The notes: generated by a model from the letters alone, not told the origin. A stretch of 64,000 nucleotides of DNA from Longimicrobiales bacterium (GCA_965198065.1 CBDAON010000004.1:672001-736000); one strand, 5' to 3'; positions 34,071 through 46,110 are shown, counted from the first letter of the stretch. Numbers and translations are program-made.

Positions 34071-34127
34071 AGGGGGCAGGACTCGAACCTGCGCGGGAAT
34101 TGCCCCGACCTCGGCTTTCAAGGCCGA
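34071..34127 (-). repeat. tRNA-Ser 3'-half fragment (distal att site of island 2)
   Basis: Minus strand TCGGC-CTTGAAA-GCCGA-GGTCGGGGCAATTCCCGC-GCAGG-TTCGAGT-CCTGC-CCCCT: anticodon loop, variable arm and T arm retained. Confidence 0.8.
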
Positions 34128-34285
34128 ACAGGGCTTTCCGGCTAGATCCGTCTGGGTCTGAAGAGCCCTGTCCTGTCTTGGTCTTCCTGGATCACCTGTC
34201 CCGCAGAGTTCGCCTGAATCCCTCGGAGTTCACATGCGTGGGTAGCAAAATGGGTAACACACTCCGACCCATCAAAAGTCCTACC

Positions 34286-34706
34286 TCACTCCGAATCCAA
34301 CCCTTGGCGCATCGAGAGGAGGAAGGGCTCTCCAGCTCCCAGCCTGGCTTGGGCATCGGCGATCGTCCTCGCCGCAGGCAGATCGAGCGCTGCCTGGCCA
34401 GAGGCGCAGGTTACCGTGATGTGCATGGGCGTGTAGATGCCGCTTGTGATGAGAGCGGCCACCCCGTTCACGAACGAGTGCTCAGTCACCACCTGCGCCA
34501 CTCCCGAGGGGCATCGCGCCGCCGCCTCCACGACGTTCGGAGAAACGAGTCCACCGAGGAAGCTGTGAGCCCAAGGAATGTCGATCGTCTGAGCACTCGG
34601 GGTCCTCCCGGTTTCGATCACCGTTCGATAGCAGCCCGCCGTCACGGAGAGCAGGAGGATGCTCATGGAGAGAACTATTCATGAATGCAAACGATGAGCG
34701 TCTCAT
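34286..34706 (-). CDS. Bor/Iss-family lipoprotein, copy 1 (+1 insertion in the signal peptide as sequenced; in-frame ATG at 34666)
   Basis: Lipobox TAGC; ..C..G..V.TEHSFVNG....IT.GIYTP....V.C resembles lambda Bor (FVNG....IT.GIYTP....V.C); GGAGG before the ATG at 34706. Confidence 0.8.
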
Positions 34707-34929
34707 GGTGGTCCCTCCGCGGGCAACAGGTAGGCTTTTCAGAAACCCCCGAACCTGAGCGTCACGATGCTCTCCCACCCATAACGTAGAGCGTCCGGTC
34801 CGCGTCACATTTGGGAGGCCGTGAAGACGGAGCGCGCCGCGTGGCCCGGCAAGAACCGGCAGCACTCGGCGGAGCCGGCCCGGCGATGGTCGCGCGCTCC
34901 GAGGTCGTCTCCACTACCAGGACGTGAGC

Positions 34930-35636
34930 ATGAGGGGATTCGCAGCGGTTTCGTGGGCCTCGGCCGTTACGGTCTGGGCCTCGACAGCCCTCGGACAGCA
35001 GCCTCCCCGGGGTCCAGGGAACCCACCGCCACCCCCATCCGCCAGGCAGCTACAGGACGAGCGTGGAGTCGACGTCTCCGTCTTCGGTCTCCTCTATACC
35101 GGCTTCGGCCGGGTCACCGACGGAGCGTCGCAGTCGAATTGGCTTCTCGCGGACGCCGCGTTCGGCGGCGGTCTGGGAGCGTCGCTCAATGCGTGGGACA
35201 ATTCAGGGTGGGCGTGGAGCTGTCCGTCGCCCGAACGCCCTACGAGCGTCGCGCCCGGGCGGGCAACGCGATCTCGGGTGCGGGAGATGCCACCGTCGGC
35301 ACGGTGCTCTTCACGGCTCGCCTGTCCCAGAGCGGCTTTCGGATCCCGGGGATCCCAGGCATCGGGGGCGTCGGATTCGGGAGCATTCCGGGGTTTGCCA
35401 CCTACCTTTCGGGAGGCCTCGGCGCGGTCTCGTACTGGCTGGAGGACCTCGATGGTGGCAACGCGGATTTCGCGTTCGCGGTCGGAGGCGGCCTCGAGTA
35501 CACCTGGTCGGGCGGAACCGTGGGCTTCCTGGAGGTGAGGCAACTCTGGGCCCTCCACGAGCGCGAGGGCGTGGAGACCTCGATGGCACGCCACTCGCGG
35601 ATCGAGCTGGGCTTGCGGCGTCCCGTGCGGAGGTGA
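34930..35636 (+). pseudogene. Outer-membrane beta-barrel (OmpA/OmpW-like) protein, frameshifted near 35190
   Basis: Signal peptide; YLSGGLG, FAFAVGGGLEY, GFLEVR, ELGLR alternating strands split over two frames. Confidence 0.55.
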
Positions 35637-35715
35637 GGGGGGCGGCGCTCCGCCGGAGGTGACGGGGTCGCCCGGCTACCCGGCGGAACGACGGGGTCGG
35701 GAGCGCGAGTGGCTC

Positions 35716-36758
35716 CTACCAGTCCTCCAAAGCGGGTTCGTCCGGGTCCGAGGAGAGGAACCGGATCAGCTCTGCGTTCACGATCTCGGGCACCTCTTCG
35801 TGCGGGTTGTGACCCACGTTCGGGATGAGCACGAGCTCGGCGTTCGGGAGCGACTCAGCCGCCCTCCGGGCATTCTCCGGGAAGTTCGGCCCATCTTCCG
35901 CCCCACCGAGCACCATGGCCTTCGTCTGGATGTGGGGGCCAGTCGTTCACCACGCTGTCGATCGAGCGGAGGTTGCCTCCCAGAGAGCGAACGTACCGGA
36001 GCCGTGGCCACTCGCCACTCAAGGCCTGTCCATAGCGAATGCGGAGGTGTTCCATGAACTGCGGTCTCCAATTCACATAGCGGTTCAGATCGGTTCGCAC
36101 GCCTGATTCGTAGACCTCCTGAGGATCCGCATCCACCTCGATCTCCCCGCTCATCGGGCGGAAGCCACGGCCCGCTCGGTTGTCGGTGAGACCGACGGCA
36201 TTGACCAGGACGAGGTGCGTCGTCATCTCCGGGTAGAGAAAGGCGAAACGGGTGGCCATCTGCCCCCCGATCGAATGACCCACGACCGCCGCCTTCGGAG
36301 ATCCTCAGGTGCTCGAGGACCCGTGCCGTGTTCGAGGCGTGCAGGCTGATGCTGTAGGGAAGGATTGGCTTGGAGGACTTGCCCCACCCGAGCCGATCCT
36401 TCACGACGACACGGAAGCCCTCGTTACGGAGGGCCTCGATCTGTTCTTTCCAATACCAGCCGTAGTAGCTCCCACCGTGAAGGAACACCACGGTCCGGCC
36501 GTTGGGCGGCCCGACCGGCGGCACATCCATATACGCGATCCGGACGTCCTGCCCATACAGATTGAGGTTCAGGAGGTGCACGGGATGGGGATACTCGATC
36601 TCCTCCATGTTGATGGAGATCGGCCCCCAGTCGGCCGGCGGTTCGGCCGGTGGTTGATCCCCCTGCGCCCGCAGCTCGACGCTTGCGAAGCAAAGCACGA
36701 GCAAGCAGATCGGCGGGACGGCAAAGAAGTCGCGAAATGACGTGCGTGGAAGCGTCAT
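35716..36758 (-). pseudogene. Secreted alpha/beta hydrolase, two +1 frameshifts (~36292, ~35936)
   Basis: VFLHG, D..GWGKSSKP, GHSIGG nucleophile elbow, GAED acid, GHNPH histidine. Confidence 0.82.
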
Positions 36759-37088
36759 CGGTTTCCCCTGGCGTGAATTCGAACTCGGAGTGTGAACGGC
36801 CGCCACCACGGCCATCAGAACCCATTCCTACGGATGATACCGGAGGACCGACGACCCATGCAACCGAGTGAGGGCGGCCGGGTCGCGGCCGGAAGAGCGA
36901 ATGTTTGCCGCTGCCTTCGGGCAGCCCGATTCGGCGATAGTCGTTGTGGGAGAACGGAGGGGGCAGGTACGTGCCGTTACGAAGACGAATCACGGAACTG
37001 CGCCCAACTGAGAAGACACGGGAAAAGAATGCTGGGCGTTCCGGGGGGCAGCCGTAGGGAGGATTCGCTACCCTACGGGACCGCGCGG

Positions 37089-38414
37089 TCACAGCGTAAG
37101 CTGGAAATCCTCCACAAGTAGGCCGGGCAACGCCATCACTCGAGTTGAGCGCTCCCGATAGGTACGCGGGTCGACGAGGAGCTCCGGCTTCGTGGTCAGT
37201 CCGAGCAATCCCTCGCCCAGCATCCGGTACAGGCTGTCGTCAAAGCGCATCACGTTTAACGGGGCTTTGATCTTCCCTTCCTCGACCCAGAAGGAGGCGA
37301 AGCGGGTCATGCCGGTCATGCGGCAGTCATTGCGGTCCGAGTAGTTGCAGTACCAGGCGTCGCTGATGTAGACCCCGGTGCCCAAACGCTCGAGTACCTC
37401 GCTCTCGGGTAGATGGCCGGGCGCCATGAACAGGGACGTGGGGAGCTCGGAGTCGGCGTTGACGGGCTCCCCGAACTCCTTCGCCGAGCGCGACCCAGCC
37501 AGAGCGCCTCGGCAAGCCCCCTCCTCGATGAGCACTACCTTCTCGGGTTTGATGAACCCCTCCATTGTAAAGGGTGGGGCCATCCCGCCCCCGTGGTTCT
37601 CAGTGATGGTAATGGAGGGGTCGAAGCGTTCGTCACCCTTCACCATCTTCACCAGGGACGTATTCCCGGTTCGGTGGCCCTTGAGACCGAAGCCCTCCCA
37701 GCCCAACACCTGCATGAGCTCGGCCCCTGCCCGGGGGGCCAGGTAGGCTCGGTAGGCGCCGCGAGGCACCGTGCGCGGCGGGCGGGTCATCATCTCCAAC
37801 TCCTCCCGCGCTCGGTCCAGGCGGTCCCCCAGAGCGTCCTCATCCCAATTGAACCCGGCGTACCCGCCCTTCACGGCCTTGTCGCCGAGGTGGTGGCAGC
37901 TGAAGTCGAAGTTGAACGTGCTTGTCTCGAACCAGTTGCGTTGTCCAAAAGCGTTGGCGAAGCCTCGATCCAGCGTCCCGCTCGCCCAGATGCCGACCAT
38001 GTCCAGGTCATCAGCGGTGCGAGTGATGATGTCGATTGCCTCTCGGGGGTCCGATAGCGCCGATGGACGCACGTCCTCCGTATCCTGAACCGTTTCCGCG
38101 TAATGCAGATGCGGGTCCTCCCCGAGGTGCGCACGCTGGGAGCGCAGCTCCTCCAGCAAGCGCTCCACACCGATTCGGTCCCGCGTCAGGTCGCCGCTCA
38201 GGGGAACGGTGCCCACCGCGTGGCGGGCGCCCTCGATCAGGTCGATGGACACGAACCTCTGCGTCACATGGCCCGCCTGACGCACCCGGTTGTGGTTGAA
38301 CCGGGCGAAGTCCGAATCCTCACCCGCGTAGTAGGAGGTGAAGAGTTCCCCCGGCCGCAGCGCTGACGCGACGATGCCGGCCACCTCGAAAAAGAGCGTT
38401 CGTGGCTCCATCAC
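37089..38414 (-). CDS. tldE: TldE/PmbA-family non-catalytic peptidase subunit
   Basis: RFNHNRVRQ, G.YRAYLAP, TGMTRFA.FWVE.G, VMRFDDS; coupled to tldD. Confidence 0.8.
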   Translation of the reverse strand: MMEPRTLFFEVAGIVASALRPGELFTSYYAGEDSDFARFNHNRVRQAGHVTQRFVSIDLIEGARHAVGTVPLSGDLTRDRIGVERLLEELRSQRAHLGEDPHLHYAETVQDTEDVRPSALSDPREAIDIITRTADDLDMVGIWASGTLDRGFANAFGQRNWFETSTFNFDFSCHHLGDKAVKGGYAGFNWDEDALGDRLDRAREELEMMTRPPRTVPRGAYRAYLAPRAGAELMQVLGWEGFGLKGHRTGNTSLVKMVKGDERFDPSITITENHGGGMAPPFTMEGFIKPEKVVLIEEGACRGALAGSRSAKEFGEPVNADSELPTSLFMAPGHLPESEVLERLGTGVYISDAWYCNYSDRNDCRMTGMTRFASFWVEEGKIKAPLNVMRFDDSLYRMLGEGLLGLTTKPELLVDPRTYRERSTRVMALPGLLVEDFQLTL

Positions 38415-39841
38415 TCCTCCCCGAACACCTCGACGTCCCGAAATCGGCAGGTTGGCGCGGCATGACCGGCGGAGATCCCCTGGTTGGGCTCGCCCTTGCC
38501 GCAGCTCGGCGTCCCCATCACCTCGAAGGTATCCCGATTCCCAACGCCATCGAGGCTCCGCCAGAAGACTGCCGAGACGCCCCGATATCGCGGGTCCCGC
38601 ACCATGCCCTTCACCTCCCCGTCCTCAATCAGCCATCCTACCTCGCAGCCGAACTGGAACTTGTTGCGGGAGTCGTCGATGGACCACGAGCGGTTGGTAT
38701 CCATCAGGACGCCACGTTCCACCCCACCGACGAGGTCCGCCATGCTATCGGTTCCCGGCTCCAGGTTCACGTTCGACATCCTGTCGATGGGAGGACGATT
38801 CCAGCTCGTGGCGCGGGAGTTCGCGACACCGGGCAGCCCGGATCGGGCCTGGGAGATGGCGCCCCCGAGGGGGCGTTCGAGAATACCCCTACGGATCAGG
38901 TAGGCCCGCTCGGCTGGGGTGCCATCATCGTCGAACGCGTAGCTGGCCGCTTCCCCCGGGATGTCCGGCGCAAAGGTCACGTTGAGGAGGGACGAGCCGT
39001 ACCGGTAGCGGCCGAACATGTCCAGCGTAACGAAGCTGGTGCCCGCGTAATTCCGCTCGTCGCCCAGGATTCGATCGAGCTCCAGCGGGTGACCGATGCT
39101 CTCGTGAACCTGCAACACCATCTGGCTCGGCATCAGCACCAGGCTGGTGGTCCCGCTGGGGCAGGTCGGGGCATCCAGTAGCTGGAGCGCTTCGGCGGCG
39201 ACACGGGCACTCTGAGACACGTAGCCGATCCGCTCCAGCTCCTCCAGGCCGCCTTGACGGTAGGAGGAGTGACCCAGCGTACGAGACTGAGAGCGTTCCC
39301 CTCGGTTGGCCACTGCTCCGAGCACCGGGTGGAGGGTCGCCGTGGACTGCTCCATCCAAGCCCCGTCGCCGGAGACCAAGAGAGATTCCCGGCTCGTATG
39401 AGCGATTTGAGCGTACCAATCGACGATGGCGTCCCCGGCCTTGAGCCCCCTCGAAGCCATCCGGAGCAGGTCGAGCTTCTCGCTGAGGCTCCACCGGTCC
39501 CATGGGATCCTACCGGGACGGTGGTCGTTTCCCTGCCCGGTCAGGCGCGGATAGTCCTTCGGCGCAATGAGCGCGTACGCGCCGGCGGCCCGAGCCCAGC
39601 TACGCGCCACCTCGAAGGCTCGCGTGAGCCCCCGGGGGGTCAGGTCGCAGGTGGCCCCGTAGCCGATGCCCCCACCGTCCAGCACGGTGACCATGGCGCC
39701 CGCATCGTGGTACGTGTAGGGGGGCTCCACGACACCCCGGCGCACCGTCAGCACGTGGGCGCTGTCCTCCACGAGACGCAGGGTCCAGTAGTCCGCACTC
39801 GGAGCGGAATGCGCAAACTCGCGCGCGATCTGGTCTAGCAC
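38411..39841 (-). CDS. tldD: TldD-family metalloprotease
   Basis: HESIGHPLELDR (HExxxH), FDDDG, PIDRMSN, NRSWSIDD, CGKGEPNQ. Confidence 0.9.
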   Translation of the reverse strand: MLDQIAREFAHSAPSADYWTLRLVEDSAHVLTVRRGVVEPPYTYHDAGAMVTVLDGGGIGYGATCDLTPRGLTRAFEVARSWARAAGAYALIAPKDYPRLTGQGNDHRPGRIPWDRWSLSEKLDLLRMASRGLKAGDAIVDWYAQIAHTSRESLLVSGDGAWMEQSTATLHPVLGAVANRGERSQSRTLGHSSYRQGGLEELERIGYVSQSARVAAEALQLLDAPTCPSGTTSLVLMPSQMVLQVHESIGHPLELDRILGDERNYAGTSFVTLDMFGRYRYGSSLLNVTFAPDIPGEAASYAFDDDGTPAERAYLIRRGILERPLGGAISQARSGLPGVANSRATSWNRPPIDRMSNVNLEPGTDSMADLVGGVERGVLMDTNRSWSIDDSRNKFQFGCEVGWLIEDGEVKGMVRDPRYRGVSAVFWRSLDGVGNRDTFEVMGTPSCGKGEPNQGISAGHAAPTCRFRDVEVFGEE

Positions 39842-40153
39842 GGGGATGCGTCGGCCCTCGCTGCGTCGTCTTTCGGGGCGATGTCCGCGCGGACTCCTGC
39901 GGGGGCAGGGAGGAGGATCGGGAAGGTGTGGTGGACGAGCAACATGTGAGGCCGGTCTCGCGTTGGCAAATCCGGACTCTCATCCTGCGGTAAACTGAAA
40001 GTCCTCTGTCCCCGGTTCGAGCCGAGCGGGCGACTAACTCCCCCCTCTTTCAGCACGTTCCCAGCAGGAGGGCCCGGACACACACCAGAGCCCGATCTGC
40101 GGAGAGGGGGGCTTAGATCGTGACCGGCCGATTCTGTAAGTCGTTGTGCCGCA

Positions 40154-40210
40154 CGGAGGGGGTGGGACTCGAACCCACGTGGGGAGTTACCCCCAACCTC
40201 GGTTTTCAAG
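40154..40210 (-). repeat. tRNA-Ser 3'-half fragment (junction between islands 1 and 2)
   Basis: Minus strand CTTGAAAACCGAGGTTGGGGGTAACTCCCCACGTGGGTTCGAGTCCCACCCCCTCCG; identical to the tRNA 3' half except in the variable arm. Confidence 0.9.
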
Positions 40211-40375
40211 GCGGGATAGGGCTTTCCGGCTAGATCCGTCTCGGTCCGAAAGGCTCTGTCCCGTCTGGATTCTTTGGAATCTGCTTTCCGGCGGAGTCCG
40301 TCGTGATCCCTCCAAAGTCGGATGCCCGGGTAACAAACCGGGTAACACTCCCTCAACCGGGCTGACGGCTTTTCG

Positions 40376-40780
40376 TCACTCCGAATTCGGCCCCCGTCCC
40401 ATTGGGAGAAGAAAGTCCTCCCCGGCGTCCACCCTGGCTCTCGCTTCCGCCAGGCTCCGCACTGTCGGCACATCGAGCGCCGCCGTGCCTGCAGCGCACG
40501 TGACGGTGATGTGCATGGGAGTGTAAATCCCTCCAGTAATGAACGCGGCCACGCCGTTCACAAACGAGTGCTCGGTAACGACGCGTGCCACTCCCGACGG
40601 ACACCGAGCTGCCGATTCTACTAGGTTCGGGGGAACGAGACCCCCGAGGAAGCTGTGCGCCCACGGGATGTCGATAGTTTGCGTGCCCACGGGCGTCGCG
40701 GTTTCGATGACAGCTCGGTAGCAGCCCGAGGAGACCGAGAGCAGCAGAATGGTCGTGGTAAGAATGAGGGGTCTGATCAC
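40376..40780 (-). CDS. Bor/Iss-family lipoprotein, copy 2
   Basis: Lipobox SSGC; TEHSFVNGVAAFITGGIYTPMHITVTC; close paralogue of 34286-34706. Confidence 0.82.
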   Translation of the reverse strand: MIRPLILTTTILLLSVSSGCYRAVIETATPVGTQTIDIPWAHSFLGGLVPPNLVESAARCPSGVARVVTEHSFVNGVAAFITGGIYTPMHITVTCAAGTAALDVPTVRSLAEARARVDAGEDFLLPMGRGPNSE

Positions 40781-40887
40781 GGCACAACTCCTGACAATAG
40801 GGTGAACCGCAACTCGTGACTACAGGCGAAGATGCGGGCGTGAAGAACCACTTGCAAGAGAAGCGGCCCGAGTCCCCTACCCCACCG

Positions 40888-41178
40888 CTAGTCTTCTCCC
40901 CGCAAAGAGGCCCACCCTGCATCGGTTCTCATAACCGACATGAGCGTCTGTAGGACAACAGTTCCCGGGAGGGTGTTACCCGAATTGTACCTTTGCCCCC
41001 CCCTCTCTACGGTGGTGTGAAGAGCGGGAATCAGCTCACCGACACCCCCCAGGGAGCCCCTGTCTGGGTCCCATCCTGGAGACTCCTTCACCTGTAGCTC
41101 CGCAAGATTCAGAAACCGTTCGTGCCCCTCGATGCCGTTCGACGCCTTCACGAACCTGTATAGGTACTTGGTGTTCAT
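40888..41178 (-). CDS. Hypothetical protein
   Basis: 96-aa ORF with AAGGA RBS just downstream of the SPFH gene; no motif recognised. Confidence 0.45.
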   Translation of the reverse strand: MNTKYLYRFVKASNGIEGHERFLNLAELQVKESPGWDPDRGSLGGVGELIPALHTTVERGGQRYNSGNTLPGTVVLQTLMSVMRTDAGWASLRGED

Positions 41179-41209
41179 CGAGGGGTCCTTTCGTACATGA
41201 GGAGTGCCA

Positions 41210-42004
41210 TCACGGAGCGACGTTCACCAGCGCACCCTGCGGAACGAATACGCAGCGGCTAGTTTCGCTCGCGCAGACCTCGCGCTGCATCTCGATCTCC
41301 TGGAGCGCCACAAATTGCGCCGGGCTCAGACCGAGCGAGTTCCGGTAGGCGTTGTCCGCCAAGGCGCGGGACTGTTCCGCCGCTAGGCGTGCGTCCTCGG
41401 CTAGCCTACGCTCGTTCTCGGTGAGCTGTCGTTGCTGCTGGGTTGCAGTTTCGACGCGCTGACTCTCAACGGCGTCCGGTGGATTCGCCCGACCCACGGT
41501 AACCTGTATGAGCCGAAGCGGTAGCTCCGCATCCAGGAGGTAGATCTCCATCTCTGCCGTGACTTCGGCGTCGATATCGTCGATTGCCTCCGTGGAGATC
41601 GCCGTCTCATTCATTCCGTGTTGCCGGACTGCCTGTCTCACTCGATTTTGGAACTCGATGGCTACGTTCTGATCGAACCATTGTACTCCGAACCCCTCGA
41701 TCAGCCGTACGCTGTTCGTGACCTGTAGGCGAATCACGGCGTTGAAGTCGAGCGGAACACCATCCGACGACATGATGTCCTCGAACGCCATTGAGAACTG
41801 CTGGGGCCGGATGTCCACGTAGGTCGGTGTGGTCGTGATCCACACCCAATTACGTCCGGTTGGCGTCGCGGAGTCTACGACCCCGCCACTCCCGAAGACG
41901 ATCGGGTATCGAGTCAGGACCGCTTCCTCGCCGGGGCCAGGAGTCACAGCTCGACAGCTTGCCAGAGACCCTGCCGCTAGAAGCAGAAGGACCGAACGTC
42001 TCAT
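41210..42004 (-). CDS. SPFH/band-7 (prohibitin-like) lipoprotein
   Basis: AAGGAGG RBS; lipobox LASC; V.PG.EAV, SSDGVPLDF, NRVRQAV, coiled-coil tail. Confidence 0.8.
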   Translation of the reverse strand: MRRSVLLLLAAGSLASCRAVTPGPGEEAVLTRYPIVFGSGGVVDSATPTGRNWVWITTTPTYVDIRPQQFSMAFEDIMSSDGVPLDFNAVIRLQVTNSVRLIEGFGVQWFDQNVAIEFQNRVRQAVRQHGMNETAISTEAIDDIDAEVTAEMEIYLLDAELPLRLIQVTVGRANPPDAVESQRVETATQQQRQLTENERRLAEDARLAAEQSRALADNAYRNSLGLSPAQFVALQEIEMQREVCASETSRCVFVPQGALVNVAP

Positions 42005-42449
42005 TTGATGTACCTCCTTGGTGTTCACGTGCTCCTCATCCTCCATCAGAAGACCGCCTAGTCAGGAGGGCACACTAATGGCCCTCTTTCCGTCGTGGTC
42101 GGCGGCTAATTCACGAAGGGCACTCCCACGAGGATACCCCCGCTTATTATGCCCTCTGACTGACTAGGCCACAAAGCGAGCTAGGGAATCGAACGCTAGA
42201 GGACGCCTGTCTCGCCGCTCATCGTTCTTCCTTCCTCGCCGCAGCGGTCCGGCTCGACCAGTACCCGGAGGTCGTCGCCGCCTTCCTCCTCACTGGCGGT
42301 CGGCGCAGTCTTCGGGCTTCCCCTTTCGGCGCTCCATGTAGGGCCCGAGGATTGACCTGCCCCCAAAAGCGGTACCACCTAGAGTGTTAGTCCAAGCACC
42401 TCCTTTTGGCTGGGGGGTGGTCCAAGAAGCAGAGGTAGGTTGAGCAGCT

Positions 42450-43235
42450 TTGGGTCTGGCCGGATCGCTTCGGGGGCCGGGGGTCGATAACCCAGAGAGC
42501 TGTGCGGTCGATGCGTGTTGTATTCGCGCCGCCACTGCTCGATCAGCACCTTCGCCTTTCGCGCTTCAGCAGCTCGTTTCGGAGCGTGCCGTTAAAGCTC
42601 TCATTGTAGCCGTTCTCCCACGGGCTGCCCGGCTCGATGAACAGCGTCTTCACGCCTAGCTCACCGAGCCACTGCCGAACCACTCGGGCCGTGAACTCCG
42701 GACCGTTGTCGGAGCGAAGATTCGCCGGTGGACCGTGCTCGGCAAACAGCTCGCTCAGCGTCTGCAGAACATCGTCCGCCTGAAGCCTGCGAGTCACCAC
42801 GATCGCCAGGCACTCCCGGCTGTACTCATCCAGCACCGTCAGCATCTTGAGCGGCCGTCCATCATGCGTCCGGTCCGCCACGAAGTCATACGCCCATACA
42901 TGGTGTCGGTACAGGGGCCGCAGTCGGATACAAGAACCGTCGGTCAGCCACAGCCTTCCTCGTTTCGGCTGCTTACTTGGCACCTTGAGCCCCTCCTGTC
43001 TCCAGATCCGCTCCACCCGCTTGTGGTTCACGGCCCAGCCCTCCGTCCTCAGCATCCCCGTCACCATCCGGTACCCGTAGCGTCCAAACCGTCGGGCCAC
43101 CTTCACCACGTCCTCTCTCAGCGCCTCCTCATCTTCGCTTCGCTTCGGTATCCGACGCTGCGTCGAGCGTGCCTGGCCCAACACCCGGCACGCCTTCCTT
43201 TCGCTCACCCCAAGCCGCTGCCGCACGTGCACCAC
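42450..43235 (-). pseudogene. IS3 OrfB DDE transposase with a deletion/frameshift near the C-terminus
   Basis: YGYR, WAYDFV.D, DEYSRECL, RSDNGPEF, PGSPWENGYNESFN; YN..RPHSSLGY continues out of frame. Confidence 0.88.
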
Positions 43236-43258
43236 GCACCGCCTGCGCCACTCGGGGC

Positions 43259-43540
43259 TCAGTAGTTTCCCTTGGAGGCTTCCTTCAAAATCAGGTTGTC
43301 GACCGTCAGATCCGCCACCGCCTGCTTCAGGCGTTGGTTTTGCTTCTCGAGCTCCTTCAGACGCTTCGCCTGGCCCACCTTCATTCCCCCGTACTCCTTA
43401 CGCCACCGGTAGTATGTCTGCTCGCTCACCCCCAGCTCACGGCACACTTGCTTGACCCTCTTCCCGTTCGCCAGGGCCACCTCCGCCTTGCGTAGCTGGT
43501 TGATGATCTGTGCCGGACTCAGCCTCTTTGGTGCGGCCAT
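43259..43540 (-). CDS. IS3 OrfA transposase (HTH)
   Basis: QII..LR.AE, CRELGVSEQTYYRWRKEYGG, RLKELEKQNQRLK. Confidence 0.9.
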   Translation of the reverse strand: MAAPKRLSPAQIINQLRKAEVALANGKRVKQVCRELGVSEQTYYRWRKEYGGMKVGQAKRLKELEKQNQRLKQAVADLTVDNLILKEASKGNY

Positions 43541-43760
43541 TGTGCCCTCCCCTTTCGTGTCTTGACCCCGTCCAGATTCTAAAACTGGACTCGGTCTCGT
43601 TTTAGGGGGTCAGATCAACCGGGCTAGGAAGGGTCGGACGCCTAGACGGCTAGTGAAACAAGCTTCTCCGGGAGGCAAGCGTCGCCCTTGCGGTTTAGAG
43701 CTTCCACCCGAATGATTCGGTCGGGCTCTATCCCGAGGTCCTTCCCATCTGGAGGTCTCC

Positions 43761-44991
43761 ATGGACCGCACACGCGCTGGGCGCTTTGCCCCTCTGTCTT
43801 TGATCGTATTCGTCGTTACCGCGTGGTTTGCGGTGCCATCCGGCGCGACGGCGCAGCAAGATGATCGCCTCGCCGAGCCCTTCTACGGGATCACTACGGA
43901 TGGCGATCTGGTCGCTGACCTCTTCCCGATACGTGCGACGGGGGTCTCGACCGCCCCGATCGTGGAGGCAGCCAGGCACTACTTAAGCACATTGTCGCCC
44001 GGGCAGATCGCACGAACGAGCTTCGATCTGGATGACAGTGAGTGGCGACACTGGAGTAATGTCCCCGTTGGCAACACTCCTCGGGCCGGCCTGTCCTTCA
44101 GAGATATGAACGACGCTCAAATGGAGGCGGCGTTCGCGATGGTGCGTGCGGGGATGAGCGCTCGCGGATTCAACCTGGCGCGGAATATCATGCGCATCGA
44201 CGGCTACCTGGCCGACGTTCTCGACAACCTAGAGGGATAACGGAGAGTTCCTCTATTTCATCGACATCTTCGGGGAGCCGCATGAAACCGAGCCTTGGGG
44301 ATGGCAACTCGATGGGCATCACCTGGTCGTCAACTTCTTCATCATGGGAGATCAGGTCGTGATGTCGCCCAACTTCTGGGGATCCGAGCCAACCCGGATC
44401 GAGACGGGCAGGTTCGCGGGAGTGGAAGCCCTGCAGGAGGAGCAGGATGTCGGCTTAGCCTTCATGGAGTCCCTGCGGCCCGATCAGGTTCGGACAGCAA
44501 CCGTCGAGACGGACAAGACCTCCAACAACCAGTTGGCCGCCGCCTTCAGAGATAATGTGATCATTGAGGAAGCCGGCATCCGGGGAGACCAACTGGACGC
44601 GGCGCAGCGCGAGCTCCTCATGGACGTCGTCGGCATCTGGGTCGGCCACATTCGGGAAGAGCACGCCGGCATCAAAATGGCCGAGGTTCGGGCCCATCTG
44701 GACGAAACCCGGTTTGCCTGGGTCGGCGACGTGGGTGACGATGCCCTGTACTACTACCGGGTCCACAGCCCCGTCATGATCATTGAGTTCGATCACTCGA
44801 TCCCGGTCAGCTTCCCCGTAGAGCCTCGGATGCCTTCGCGAACCCACATTCACGCGGGCGTTCGGACTCCGAACGGAAATGACTACGGAAAGGATCTGCT
44901 CCGGCAGCACTACGAGCAGCACGCCAACGACCCGAACCACGTGCACGATCATCCGTACCCAGCGGGGTCGGCGACAGCCGGCGGTCCATGA
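43761..44991 (+). pseudogene. Secreted DUF3500-type protein, +1 frameshift at ~44239
   Basis: Signal peptide; W..WSN.P, WGWQLDGHHL..N, YYRVHSP...IEFD, HIH...RTPNGNDYG; GGATAACGGA has one extra A relative to GGA TAC GGA. Confidence 0.75.
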
Positions 44992-45273
44992 TCTCCTGCG
45001 GTCCGGTCATCCGGTGGCCTGAGCGTCGGGTATCGGGTCGGTCCATCAGGTAGCGAACGCGGCGGGCGTCGGTGAACGGCGCCCGCCGCGAGCGTTCTGT
45101 AACCCCGGGGCTACCCTAGCCTACGGCACGCCGACTCCCCTTCCTGGAGAGTCGTCTTGGTATCCGCACCGCTGAAGGGACGTACGACCCTCCGAATGGC
45201 ACTCTTGAGGTGAGCGCCCACGTAAGCTCGACATCGGCCGAAAGTGCAGTCAAAGGCGACACTTACAGTGCGC

Positions 45274-45318
45274 CCCATCTAGAGCAGAATGTGACTCGCC
45301 GAAGCCCCCCAGGGAGGG
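45274..45318 (+). repeat. Imperfect ~45-bp direct repeat, copy A
   Basis: CCCATCTAGAGCAG..TGACT..CCGA..CCCCCCAGGGAGGG. Confidence 0.65.
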
Positions 45319-45381
45319 GGTGTAAATGGGTCCCCATAGAGAGGTACGATCTACGAGTGCGCCTTCTTGACTCGGGCCTTC

Positions 45382-45522
45382 TTAATGGTGTTGGGCGGCG
45401 GTGTAGACGAGGAAGCTCACGACACCGAGGAAGCTCACGATACCTACGTAGGCCGCGATCACGCCGACCCACTGGAACGTCCACCATCCCCGCTCGATCA
45501 GATTCGCCTGGTGCGCGTTCAT
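45382..45522 (-). CDS. 46-aa single-pass membrane peptide (not in the ORF track)
   Basis: GGAGG RBS then MNAHQANLIERGWWTFQWVGVIAAYVGIVSFLGVVSFLVYTAAQHH*. Confidence 0.6.
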   Translation of the reverse strand: MNAHQANLIERGWWTFQWVGVIAAYVGIVSFLGVVSFLVYTAAQHH

Positions 45523-45668
45523 GATGCCCTCCCGTGTTCATCGGACGAAGCCGAGGATTTCGCGGCCCGGAGCTCGTCCCCGGGTCTGCCCGCCGACTTA
45601 GACGTACCTACGCGAAATAGGGGTTGGGGGATTCAGGGCACCATCAGCCTGACCCTCGGTCAGTTGGT

Positions 45669-45712
45669 CCCATCTAGAGCAGGACTTGACTTACCGACAC
45701 CCCCCAGGAGGG
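45669..45712 (+). repeat. Imperfect ~45-bp direct repeat, copy B
   Basis: CCCATCTAGAGCAG..TGACT..CCGA..CCCCCCAGGAGGG; abuts the truncation point of the integrase. Confidence 0.65.
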
Positions 45713-45713
45713 T

Positions 45714-45997
45714 TACACGCTCCACGACCATCGCCACACGGCCGCGCCGTCCACCTCGCGCGGGCCGGCATGCCCCTGAACCTGCTCCAGGGCCAGCTCG
45801 GGCATACAACGATCTCAATGACAATGCGCTACGCCCGGCTCCACCCGGACTACTCGGACGTCCGCGAATACTTCGACCGTGTGGGTGAGCGGTTCGGGCT
45901 GGCCGCTCCGGAAAAGGTTTCCGCTTCTCCGGGTAACAAAACGGGTAACACTCCCTCCGAAGAGCCCCTCGAAGCGGCTCCGCGCGAGCACGTCTGA
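45714..45997 (+). pseudogene. Tyrosine recombinase/integrase, C-terminal fragment
   Basis: YTLHDHRHTA (HxxR), then after a frameshift AVHLARAG..L..LQ.QLGH....MTMRYA (GH and catalytic Tyr); N-terminal part missing. Confidence 0.85.
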
Positions 45998-46022
45998 TGC
46001 GGCGTAAGTTGTTGCGGGAGAA

Positions 46023-46110
46023 CGGAGGGGGTGGGACTCGAACCCACGTGGGCTGTTAGGCCCAACCTCGGTTTTCAAGACCGGTACCTTAGCCGCTCGG
46101 TCACCCCTCC
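46023..46110 (-). tRNA. tRNA-Ser (anticodon TGA)
   Basis: GGAGGGG/CCCCTCC acceptor stem, G discriminator, CT-TGA-AA loop, long variable arm GGGC-CTAACA-GCCC, GTGGG-TTCGAGT-CCCAC; 88 nt, no encoded CCA. Confidence 0.95.

Follow-up and report, generated by a model that had tools for sequence, protein, structure and literature searches.

How does a single working tRNA gene come to be followed by several different versions of its own 3' half? We address this question for a 64,000-nucleotide stretch of the genome of a Longimicrobiales bacterium (GCA_965198065.1 CBDAON010000004.1:672001-736000; below, the window), in which a tRNA-Ser(TGA) gene and displaced fragments of its 3' half mark out a probable array of small decayed islands. 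The original prediction for this locus was that two elements of one family had integrated in succession, each swapping in its own tRNA-Ser 3' half. We consider it likely that three integrations took place at the anticodon site, unit C first, then B, then A, that each rebuilt the tRNA with its own half, and that the units decayed afterwards.

The intact tRNA-Ser gene and its displaced 3' halves

The single tRNA in the window is tRNA-Ser(TGA) at 46023-46110 on the minus strand; ARAGORN and Rfam (54 bits) agree on it, as had been predicted. Downstream, and co-oriented with the gene, we found two long 3' halves, copy 2 (40154-40210) and copy 3 (34071-34122). In both, identity to the intact gene opens at the first base of the anticodon loop, CTTGAAA, and continues from this 7-base loop onward, which defines the anticodon-loop (A-site) class of islands. 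An intact tRNA with an end fragment in the same orientation downstream is also what defines an island in the Islander survey (PMC4383910; Hudson, Lau, Williams), where 2083 of 3919 islands are of the A-site class and 125 tandems are recorded. The original prediction had located both halves but ran the distal one to 34127, whereas the tRNA stops at 34122: positions 34123-34127 are island arm, despite closing a perfect hairpin. It also overlooked a third remnant. This fragment, copy 4 (36955-36967, co-oriented), consists of the final 13 bases of the tRNA, with the same CCTGC strand as copy 3 and an intact acceptor end, followed by the short head motif that also lies behind the intact gene and copy 2. 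It was detected at an E value of 0.005 and agrees with the end of the tRNA of the congener G001 at 19 of 19 positions. The acceptor end plus head motif has two matches genome-wide, copy 2 and copy 4. The 5' side of copy 4 has been removed by a segment with four further copies elsewhere in the genome.

The halves are not simple duplicates. As claimed, they carry three variable arms (GGGC-CTAACA-GCCC, GGGG-GTAACT-CCCC and GGGG-CAAT-TCCC) and, distally, a GCAGG/CCTGC T stem. Copy 2 differs from the intact gene in the variable arm alone, where one C-G pair has become G-C and the loop has changed. In copy 3, three stem pairs are altered, each on both sides, so that all six changes among 18 stem bases fall within three double-compensatory pairs. 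A compensatory pair that had not been noted before (T-A to C-G) sits at the base of its variable arm, and position 39 is a G. Its match ends after T70 (CCCCT, then AG), and its acceptor strand is therefore incomplete. In a transition-biased simulation, the chance of nine pairs staying paired was 0.00055 when only Watson-Crick pairs counted and 0.0099 when G-U was allowed. The covariation is beyond chance. Since the stems stay paired despite the changes, the differences arose while the halves had to fold.

Both halves match tRNA-Ser(TGA) across their entire length, and the genome's other serine tRNAs match copy 2 over the T arm only (31-32 bases); thus no different tRNA locus fits the halves better than this one. 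The host 5' half joined to either long half is called as tRNA-Ser by ARAGORN, although this is a weak test. We rejected two other identities for copy 3. It is not tRNA-Sec (Rfam 31.9 bits against a cut-off of 47; acceptor and D arm are missing), nor is it a whole tRNA that uses the island arm as its 5' half, as the arm is unable to pair with the acceptor strand.

The window tRNA (46023-46110) itself has a C27-A43 mismatch and three extra bases ahead of the variable arm, a type common to genera g1, g24, g43, g50 and g71 and one g54 genome. In contigs over the working tRNA from three of four runs, the variable arm is two bases shorter; this shorter form may belong to a strain, a co-occurring relative or a displaced half.

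Units, integrase and arm repeats of the array

From the tRNA outward, the array reads as follows.

46023-46110, minus strand: intact tRNA-Ser(TGA) (ARAGORN, Rfam); probable left attachment site (attL) of the newest unit, A, with a host 5' half and a putatively element-supplied 3' half from 46079
45929-46022, minus strand: unit A head, a short post-tRNA motif and the arm-type direct repeat TGTTACCC-N4-TGTTACCC at +129 from the loop
45711-45997, plus strand: tyrosine integrase remnant, C-terminal part, frameshifted (PF00589, phrog_1)
40765-45710, no single strand: unit A cargo and debris (Pfam and repeat comparison)
43761-44991: split DUF3500 gene, unit A
about 42342-43628: IS3-type insertion sequence (IS) element, unit A
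41210-42046: SPFH/Band-7 gene, unit A
41018-41083, 45266-45346 and 45657-45712: repeated element ends, unit A
40211-40780, minus strand: unit A tail, a Bor-family lipoprotein gene (40376-40780) and the distal arm, with the arm repeat at -137 from the loop
40154-40210, minus strand: copy 2, a complete tRNA-Ser 3' half with a different variable arm, followed by the unit B head motif
36968-40153, minus strand: unit B body, head motif and then tldD and pmbA (37089-39841)
36968-37052: repeated upstream-of-gene segment, in place of the lost unit B tail
36939-36967, minus strand: copy 4 (13 bases, 36955-36967) and the unit C head motif
34675-36938: unit C cargo, an open reading frame (34924-35538) with no Pfam hit and a 1.3-kb alpha/beta-hydrolase segment
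34123-34674, minus strand: unit C tail, a second Bor-family gene (34286-34666) and the distal arm, with the arm repeat at -137
34071-34122, minus strand: copy 3, the last displaced 3' half, with no head motif behind it

Three heads can thus be counted, at the tRNA (A), at copy 2 (B) and at copy 4 (C), against two surviving tails. Because of the third head, the stretch from 40153 to 34123 is not a single element as the original prediction implied; and because the head motif is missing behind copy 3, copy 3 is the terminal fragment. The coordinates give unit lengths of about 5.8, 3.2 and 2.8 kb, which fall within the 2-200 kb range used by Islander. The tails of units A and C are homologous over 610 bp at 73% identity, Bor gene included; homology of the distal ends had been noticed before, but over only about 200 bp. 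Both Bor-family genes (PF06291, phrog_260) score well above the Pfam cut-off of 25, at 65.1 and 62.3 bits. GC content is mostly 0.60-0.67 within the array and 0.67-0.71 outside. Neither virion nor conjugation genes, the marks of a prophage or an integrative and conjugative element, were found among 20 Pfam-scanned proteins (18 of them inside the array).

The integrase remnant at 45711-45997 scores 30.4 bits to PF00589, above the Pfam cut-off, and is 62-66% identical to full-length relatives of 390-400 amino acids, two of which (390 and 400 amino acids) are, like the remnant, phrog_1. Its 5' end has been cut by a repeated mobile-element end. Islander asks for a PF00589 integrase: the unit A remnant is over the cut-off but truncated and frameshifted, and units B and C have none. 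Since the sole integrase of the array is this broken remnant, the array is likely dead.

Across the family, full-length relatives of the remnant are located at tRNA-Ser. The integrase was found in 15 of 260 family genomes, nearly always beside tRNA-Ser(TGA), tRNA-Ser(CGA) or tRNA-Gln(TTG). Among 16 other loci matching the remnant, 13 had tRNA-Ser(TGA or CGA) or a loop-start half, adjoining or within the 3-kb locus as judged by ARAGORN or position, and 2 were at tRNA-Gln.

At the working tRNA, the TGTTACCC-N4-TGTTACCC repeat follows the loop at a distance of 129 bases; at copies 2 and 3 it precedes the loop by 137 bases. Repeats of the arm type therefore flank the core of the reconstructed phage-type attachment site (attP) at +129 and -137 in unit A, and at -137 in unit C. 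The same repeat is found at +116 to +118 behind tRNA-Ser in G214, G372 and G422 and at -138 in G253. In G214 the element is complete: over 4.6 kb it runs from the tRNA through a repeat at +117, the integrase and a repeat at -137 to a loop-start half. This matching spacing at intact and window elements ties the integrase clade to crossover in the anticodon loop. By analogy, the repeats probably bind the integrase; binding of arm repeats by integrase is known from lambda-type systems.

Integrases of the same clade at four other loci (L098, L099, L100 and L101, in G241, G208, G385 and G262) aim at the 5' end of the tRNA-Ser(TGA) gene, and their arm repeats lie upstream of it. They appear to be a subgroup of reversed orientation, in which the element would contribute the 5' half.

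History of the array

The mechanism put forward at the outset, one tyrosine-integrase family integrating at the anticodon loop and stacking in tandem with non-identical functional halves, agrees with what we found; the number of integrations does not, as copy 4 is a further remnant and there were therefore probably three insertions, not two. According to this model, unit C would have come first, pushing out copy 3 and leaving at the tRNA the end that survives as copy 4. Unit B would then have displaced that end and supplied the copy 2 half, and unit A, arriving last, would have displaced copy 2 and supplied the working half, making the working gene a chimera of host and element. The differences among the halves would go back to related hosts: every element would have brought one such host's version with it, always of one clade-specific tRNA type; since every half is of the host clade's own type, the donors were presumably close relatives. 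Such swaps would be tolerated because seryl-tRNA synthetase recognises the long variable arm mainly by its shape. Later deletions and insertions may then have stripped the integrases, which would have left the array probably fixed.

The locus in relatives is consistent with insertion at an otherwise short interval. The conserved frame is purH - tRNA-Ser - variable - ispG (5 loci), and in four loci that share the tRNA type the tRNA is separated from the gene after it by about 60-120 bp. The original prediction had taken gdh and purH as the frame. At the near-empty loci the next gene is a convergent gdh, which is only 35-38% identical to the window gdh, so the latter does not correspond to the gene behind the tRNA in relatives and is unsafe as a backbone marker; we rejected the idea that it is a fixed flank. 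Nor is the 12 kb a fixed syntenic backbone, as relatives are near-empty or differently filled, and at the family level presence is sporadic and empty sites occur, as Islander expects. The records of relatives with the same tRNA type are Gemmatimonadota, some of them Longimicrobiales. The tested cargo proteins had no match in 56 partly redundant tRNA-Ser loci, and the tail (arm plus Bor) as a unit was absent from 40 relatives, with short partial matches in 5. A search for the distal junction gave no loci in either viral or metagenome contigs; a wider junction pattern gave 4 metagenome loci, and further viral scans gave 0 and 1 unrelated tRNA. Contigs of four other studies fall on the stretch, three of the studies bridging copy 2 and two bridging copy 3 with few differences. 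The array is therefore shared by other strains and is not an assembly artefact.

The 5' half of the working tRNA is that of G001, the sole congener, and of five g43 genomes; the 3' half differs. In G001 the variable arm and T stem are others again, and the T stem of its intact tRNA-Ser is compensated, yet differently.

Several results weigh against a history of three integrations. No empty site was seen in the same species or, because G001 breaks at the repeat, in the same genus. Circles joined at attP had been proposed as a check, yet no excision, circle or empty-site joint appeared among the 15 listed of 77 joints, all from contigs. The tail of unit B is missing, and neither an integrase nor a head-side arm repeat is present in units B and C. 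No intact integrase of the remnant's clade was found in the genome (88% complete), only two short remnants, so activity is not demonstrable here. Copy 3 has no known living counterpart, since none of the intact tRNA-Ser(TGA) genes in 400 other genomes from the phylum has G39, and a GCAGG T stem is absent from the 150 listed of 265 family rows. Lastly, the 19-base T arm of copy 3 equals those of tRNA-Arg(CCT) and one tRNA-Asn(GTT) in the same genome.

The same mechanism could have operated elsewhere, with the stack assembled partly or wholly in other hosts and imported as a composite island; copy 3 alone would then be the lineage's former half, and copies 2 and 4 would come from donors. The tails of units A and C are of one family, and a single integrase could in principle excise the stretch from the tRNA to copy 3. 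Near-identical tandem half pairs also occur in G341 and G392, which are of different genera, although this may reflect transfer or mis-binning. Import is nevertheless unlikely: copies 3 and 4 both combine the unusual CCTGC strand with the serine acceptor end, as expected if unit C is native, and every half is of the host clade's own tRNA type.

We also considered that the T stem of copies 3 and 4 was taken from the T arm of another tRNA, through gene conversion or an element targeting the T loop. The tRNA-Arg and tRNA-Asn identity noted above favors this, as does G001, where about 850 bp separate a displaced serine half from a tRNA-Arg with the same T arm. However, this stem is common among tRNAs and a match is therefore expected; copy 4 joins it to an intact serine acceptor end and the head motif, which suggests a once-working end; the intact tRNA-Ser of G001 has another compensated T stem; and the variable arms would be left unexplained. 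We regard such a transfer as very improbable. Plain segmental duplication of the tRNA end with neutral decay, without site-specific integration, is hardly credible even in a genome rich in IS copies and rearranged repeats, as it is contradicted by the preserved stem pairing, which neutral decay would not maintain, by the loop-start of the copies and by a repeat at -137 as in the intact element of another genus. Three successive integrations thus remain the reading that we prefer.

Exchange of halves in the family and in known systems

A pattern running from the loop to the acceptor end was found in 227 of 301 family genomes, 27 of which, this one counted, had two or more matches. Of the other 26, 8 had whole-gene copies only and G047 was left out, leaving 17 for comparison: 9 had halves identical to the resident gene and 8 had at least one differing half. 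A replaced variable arm explains six of these eight (G268, G341, G392, G432, G104 and G253). The clean same-contig cases are G268 and contig C168 of G341; mis-binning is possible for G341 and G392, whose contigs are near-identical, and for G104 and G432, where the half is on a separate contig. Swapped halves are common in the family.

Both of two 3'-half types, separated by 8 linked differing bases, occur in each of genera g15, g75 and g53, while the 5' halves are identical within each genus. This comparison was made by eye on the 150 listed of 175 rows, without a tree, and two g53 genes lie behind reverse-orientation integrases, which complicates the g53 case. We tentatively suggest, as a possibility short of an even chance, that an anticodon-loop integrase clade shuttles the 3' half of a single-copy essential tRNA, that tRNA-Ser(TGA) is a family-wide mosaic of vertically inherited 5' and laterally exchanged 3' halves in which the variable arm and T stem move as a block, and that the window keeps successive alleles. 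If this is true family-wide, then a tRNA gene at an integration hot spot is not passed on whole, and covariation in variable arms and T stems would in part reflect block exchange and not repeated compensatory mutation. This matters for tRNA-based phylogeny and for island callers that require near-identical repeats. We found no family-wide study of island-driven tRNA chimerism in the literature that we covered, which was partial, with most subscription papers outside it.

The window resembles A-site islands in Islander in its restored tRNA, its co-oriented displaced 3' fragments, the integrase adjoining the tRNA and the crossover in the loop. It departs from Islander tandems in that its units are decayed and none has an intact integrase, with units B and C having none at all, so that Islander would not resolve the tandem. 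The fragments of a tandem are present but one integrase per member is not, and the array is therefore a relic. Its displaced halves also differ from the working gene by whole compensated stems, in contrast to Islander islands. Both tail genes belong to the family of the lambda Bor/Iss lipoprotein (PF06291), here as cargo of small decayed islands in an environmental lineage. The array is likely a decayed tandem at an anticodon site, formed by a known mechanism, with similar scars in many relatives. Taken alone, the locus is an ordinary stack of decayed islands, yet a clear one, as it has kept successive versions of half an essential gene.

A 'damaged' tRNA-gene (tDNA) fragment is known from P4-type integrase at transfer-messenger RNA (tmRNA). 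The Islander filter allows fragments that end 3 bases before the discriminator (PMC4383910), and copy 3, which stops at T70, ends at that very point. The damage in the window differs, as it is seen in a half of the anticodon-site type that also has G39; there was one other case (2 of 301 genomes in total). A host/element chimeric tRNA has already been described: for mycobacteriophage Boilgate (PMC10865867), with attP/attB-4 at tRNA-Lys(TTT), the element 3' half differs by five bases from that of the host, the tRNA at attL is foldable and integration was confirmed by PCR. That case concerns one phage and scattered single-base differences, whereas in the window successive halves that differ in variable arm and T stem stand side by side. 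Fragments of tRNA genes and sequential integrations are routine in the portions consulted of PMC9897764, PMC9580842 and PMC11476347, the last of which, in those portions, reports no substitutions at its hot-spot attachment sites.

G39 and the acceptor ending CCCCCTAG occur jointly in 34071-34122 of the window and in L157:4595-4650 (G392), two dead halves that belong to different tRNA types, and L156 has a third half with G39. The ending CCCCCTAG was found in 2 of 301 genomes, this one counted, which is too few to fix a mechanism. The combination of G39 with a shortened acceptor, which recurs in dead halves (window and G392), may be a scar made by the integrase. In L102, L103 and L156, the T loop of some displaced halves is split by a small structured insert, the start of which has a 20-base match at 40014-40033, in the unit B head.

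In G001, L002:11241-12169 holds a displaced tRNA-Ser half about 850 bp from a tRNA-Arg(TCT), with an integrase-like remnant between them, a layout which suggests that islands from two tRNA sites have been joined. In G019 (L012), the tRNA-Ser(TGA) gene between purH and ispG has the opposite orientation to that in other members of the family.

The repeated element end of unit A (41018-41083, 45266-45346 and 45657-45712) is present at several other sites in the genome and bounds the integrase truncation. Contigs of two runs omit 40610-41055, stopping inside one copy of this end. The element end may be eroding the islands. The alpha/beta-hydrolase segment of unit C has a second copy elsewhere in the genome, at 98.5%. 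Its frame break at 35934 is absent from the contigs of all 4 runs and that at 36292 from those of 3 of the 4; both are possibly assembly errors or private mutations. IS3-type copies number in the dozens in this genome (G000), which also has 34 PF00589 matches over 3 Mb; about 20 of its tRNAs are clustered at C4:1710874-1713237.

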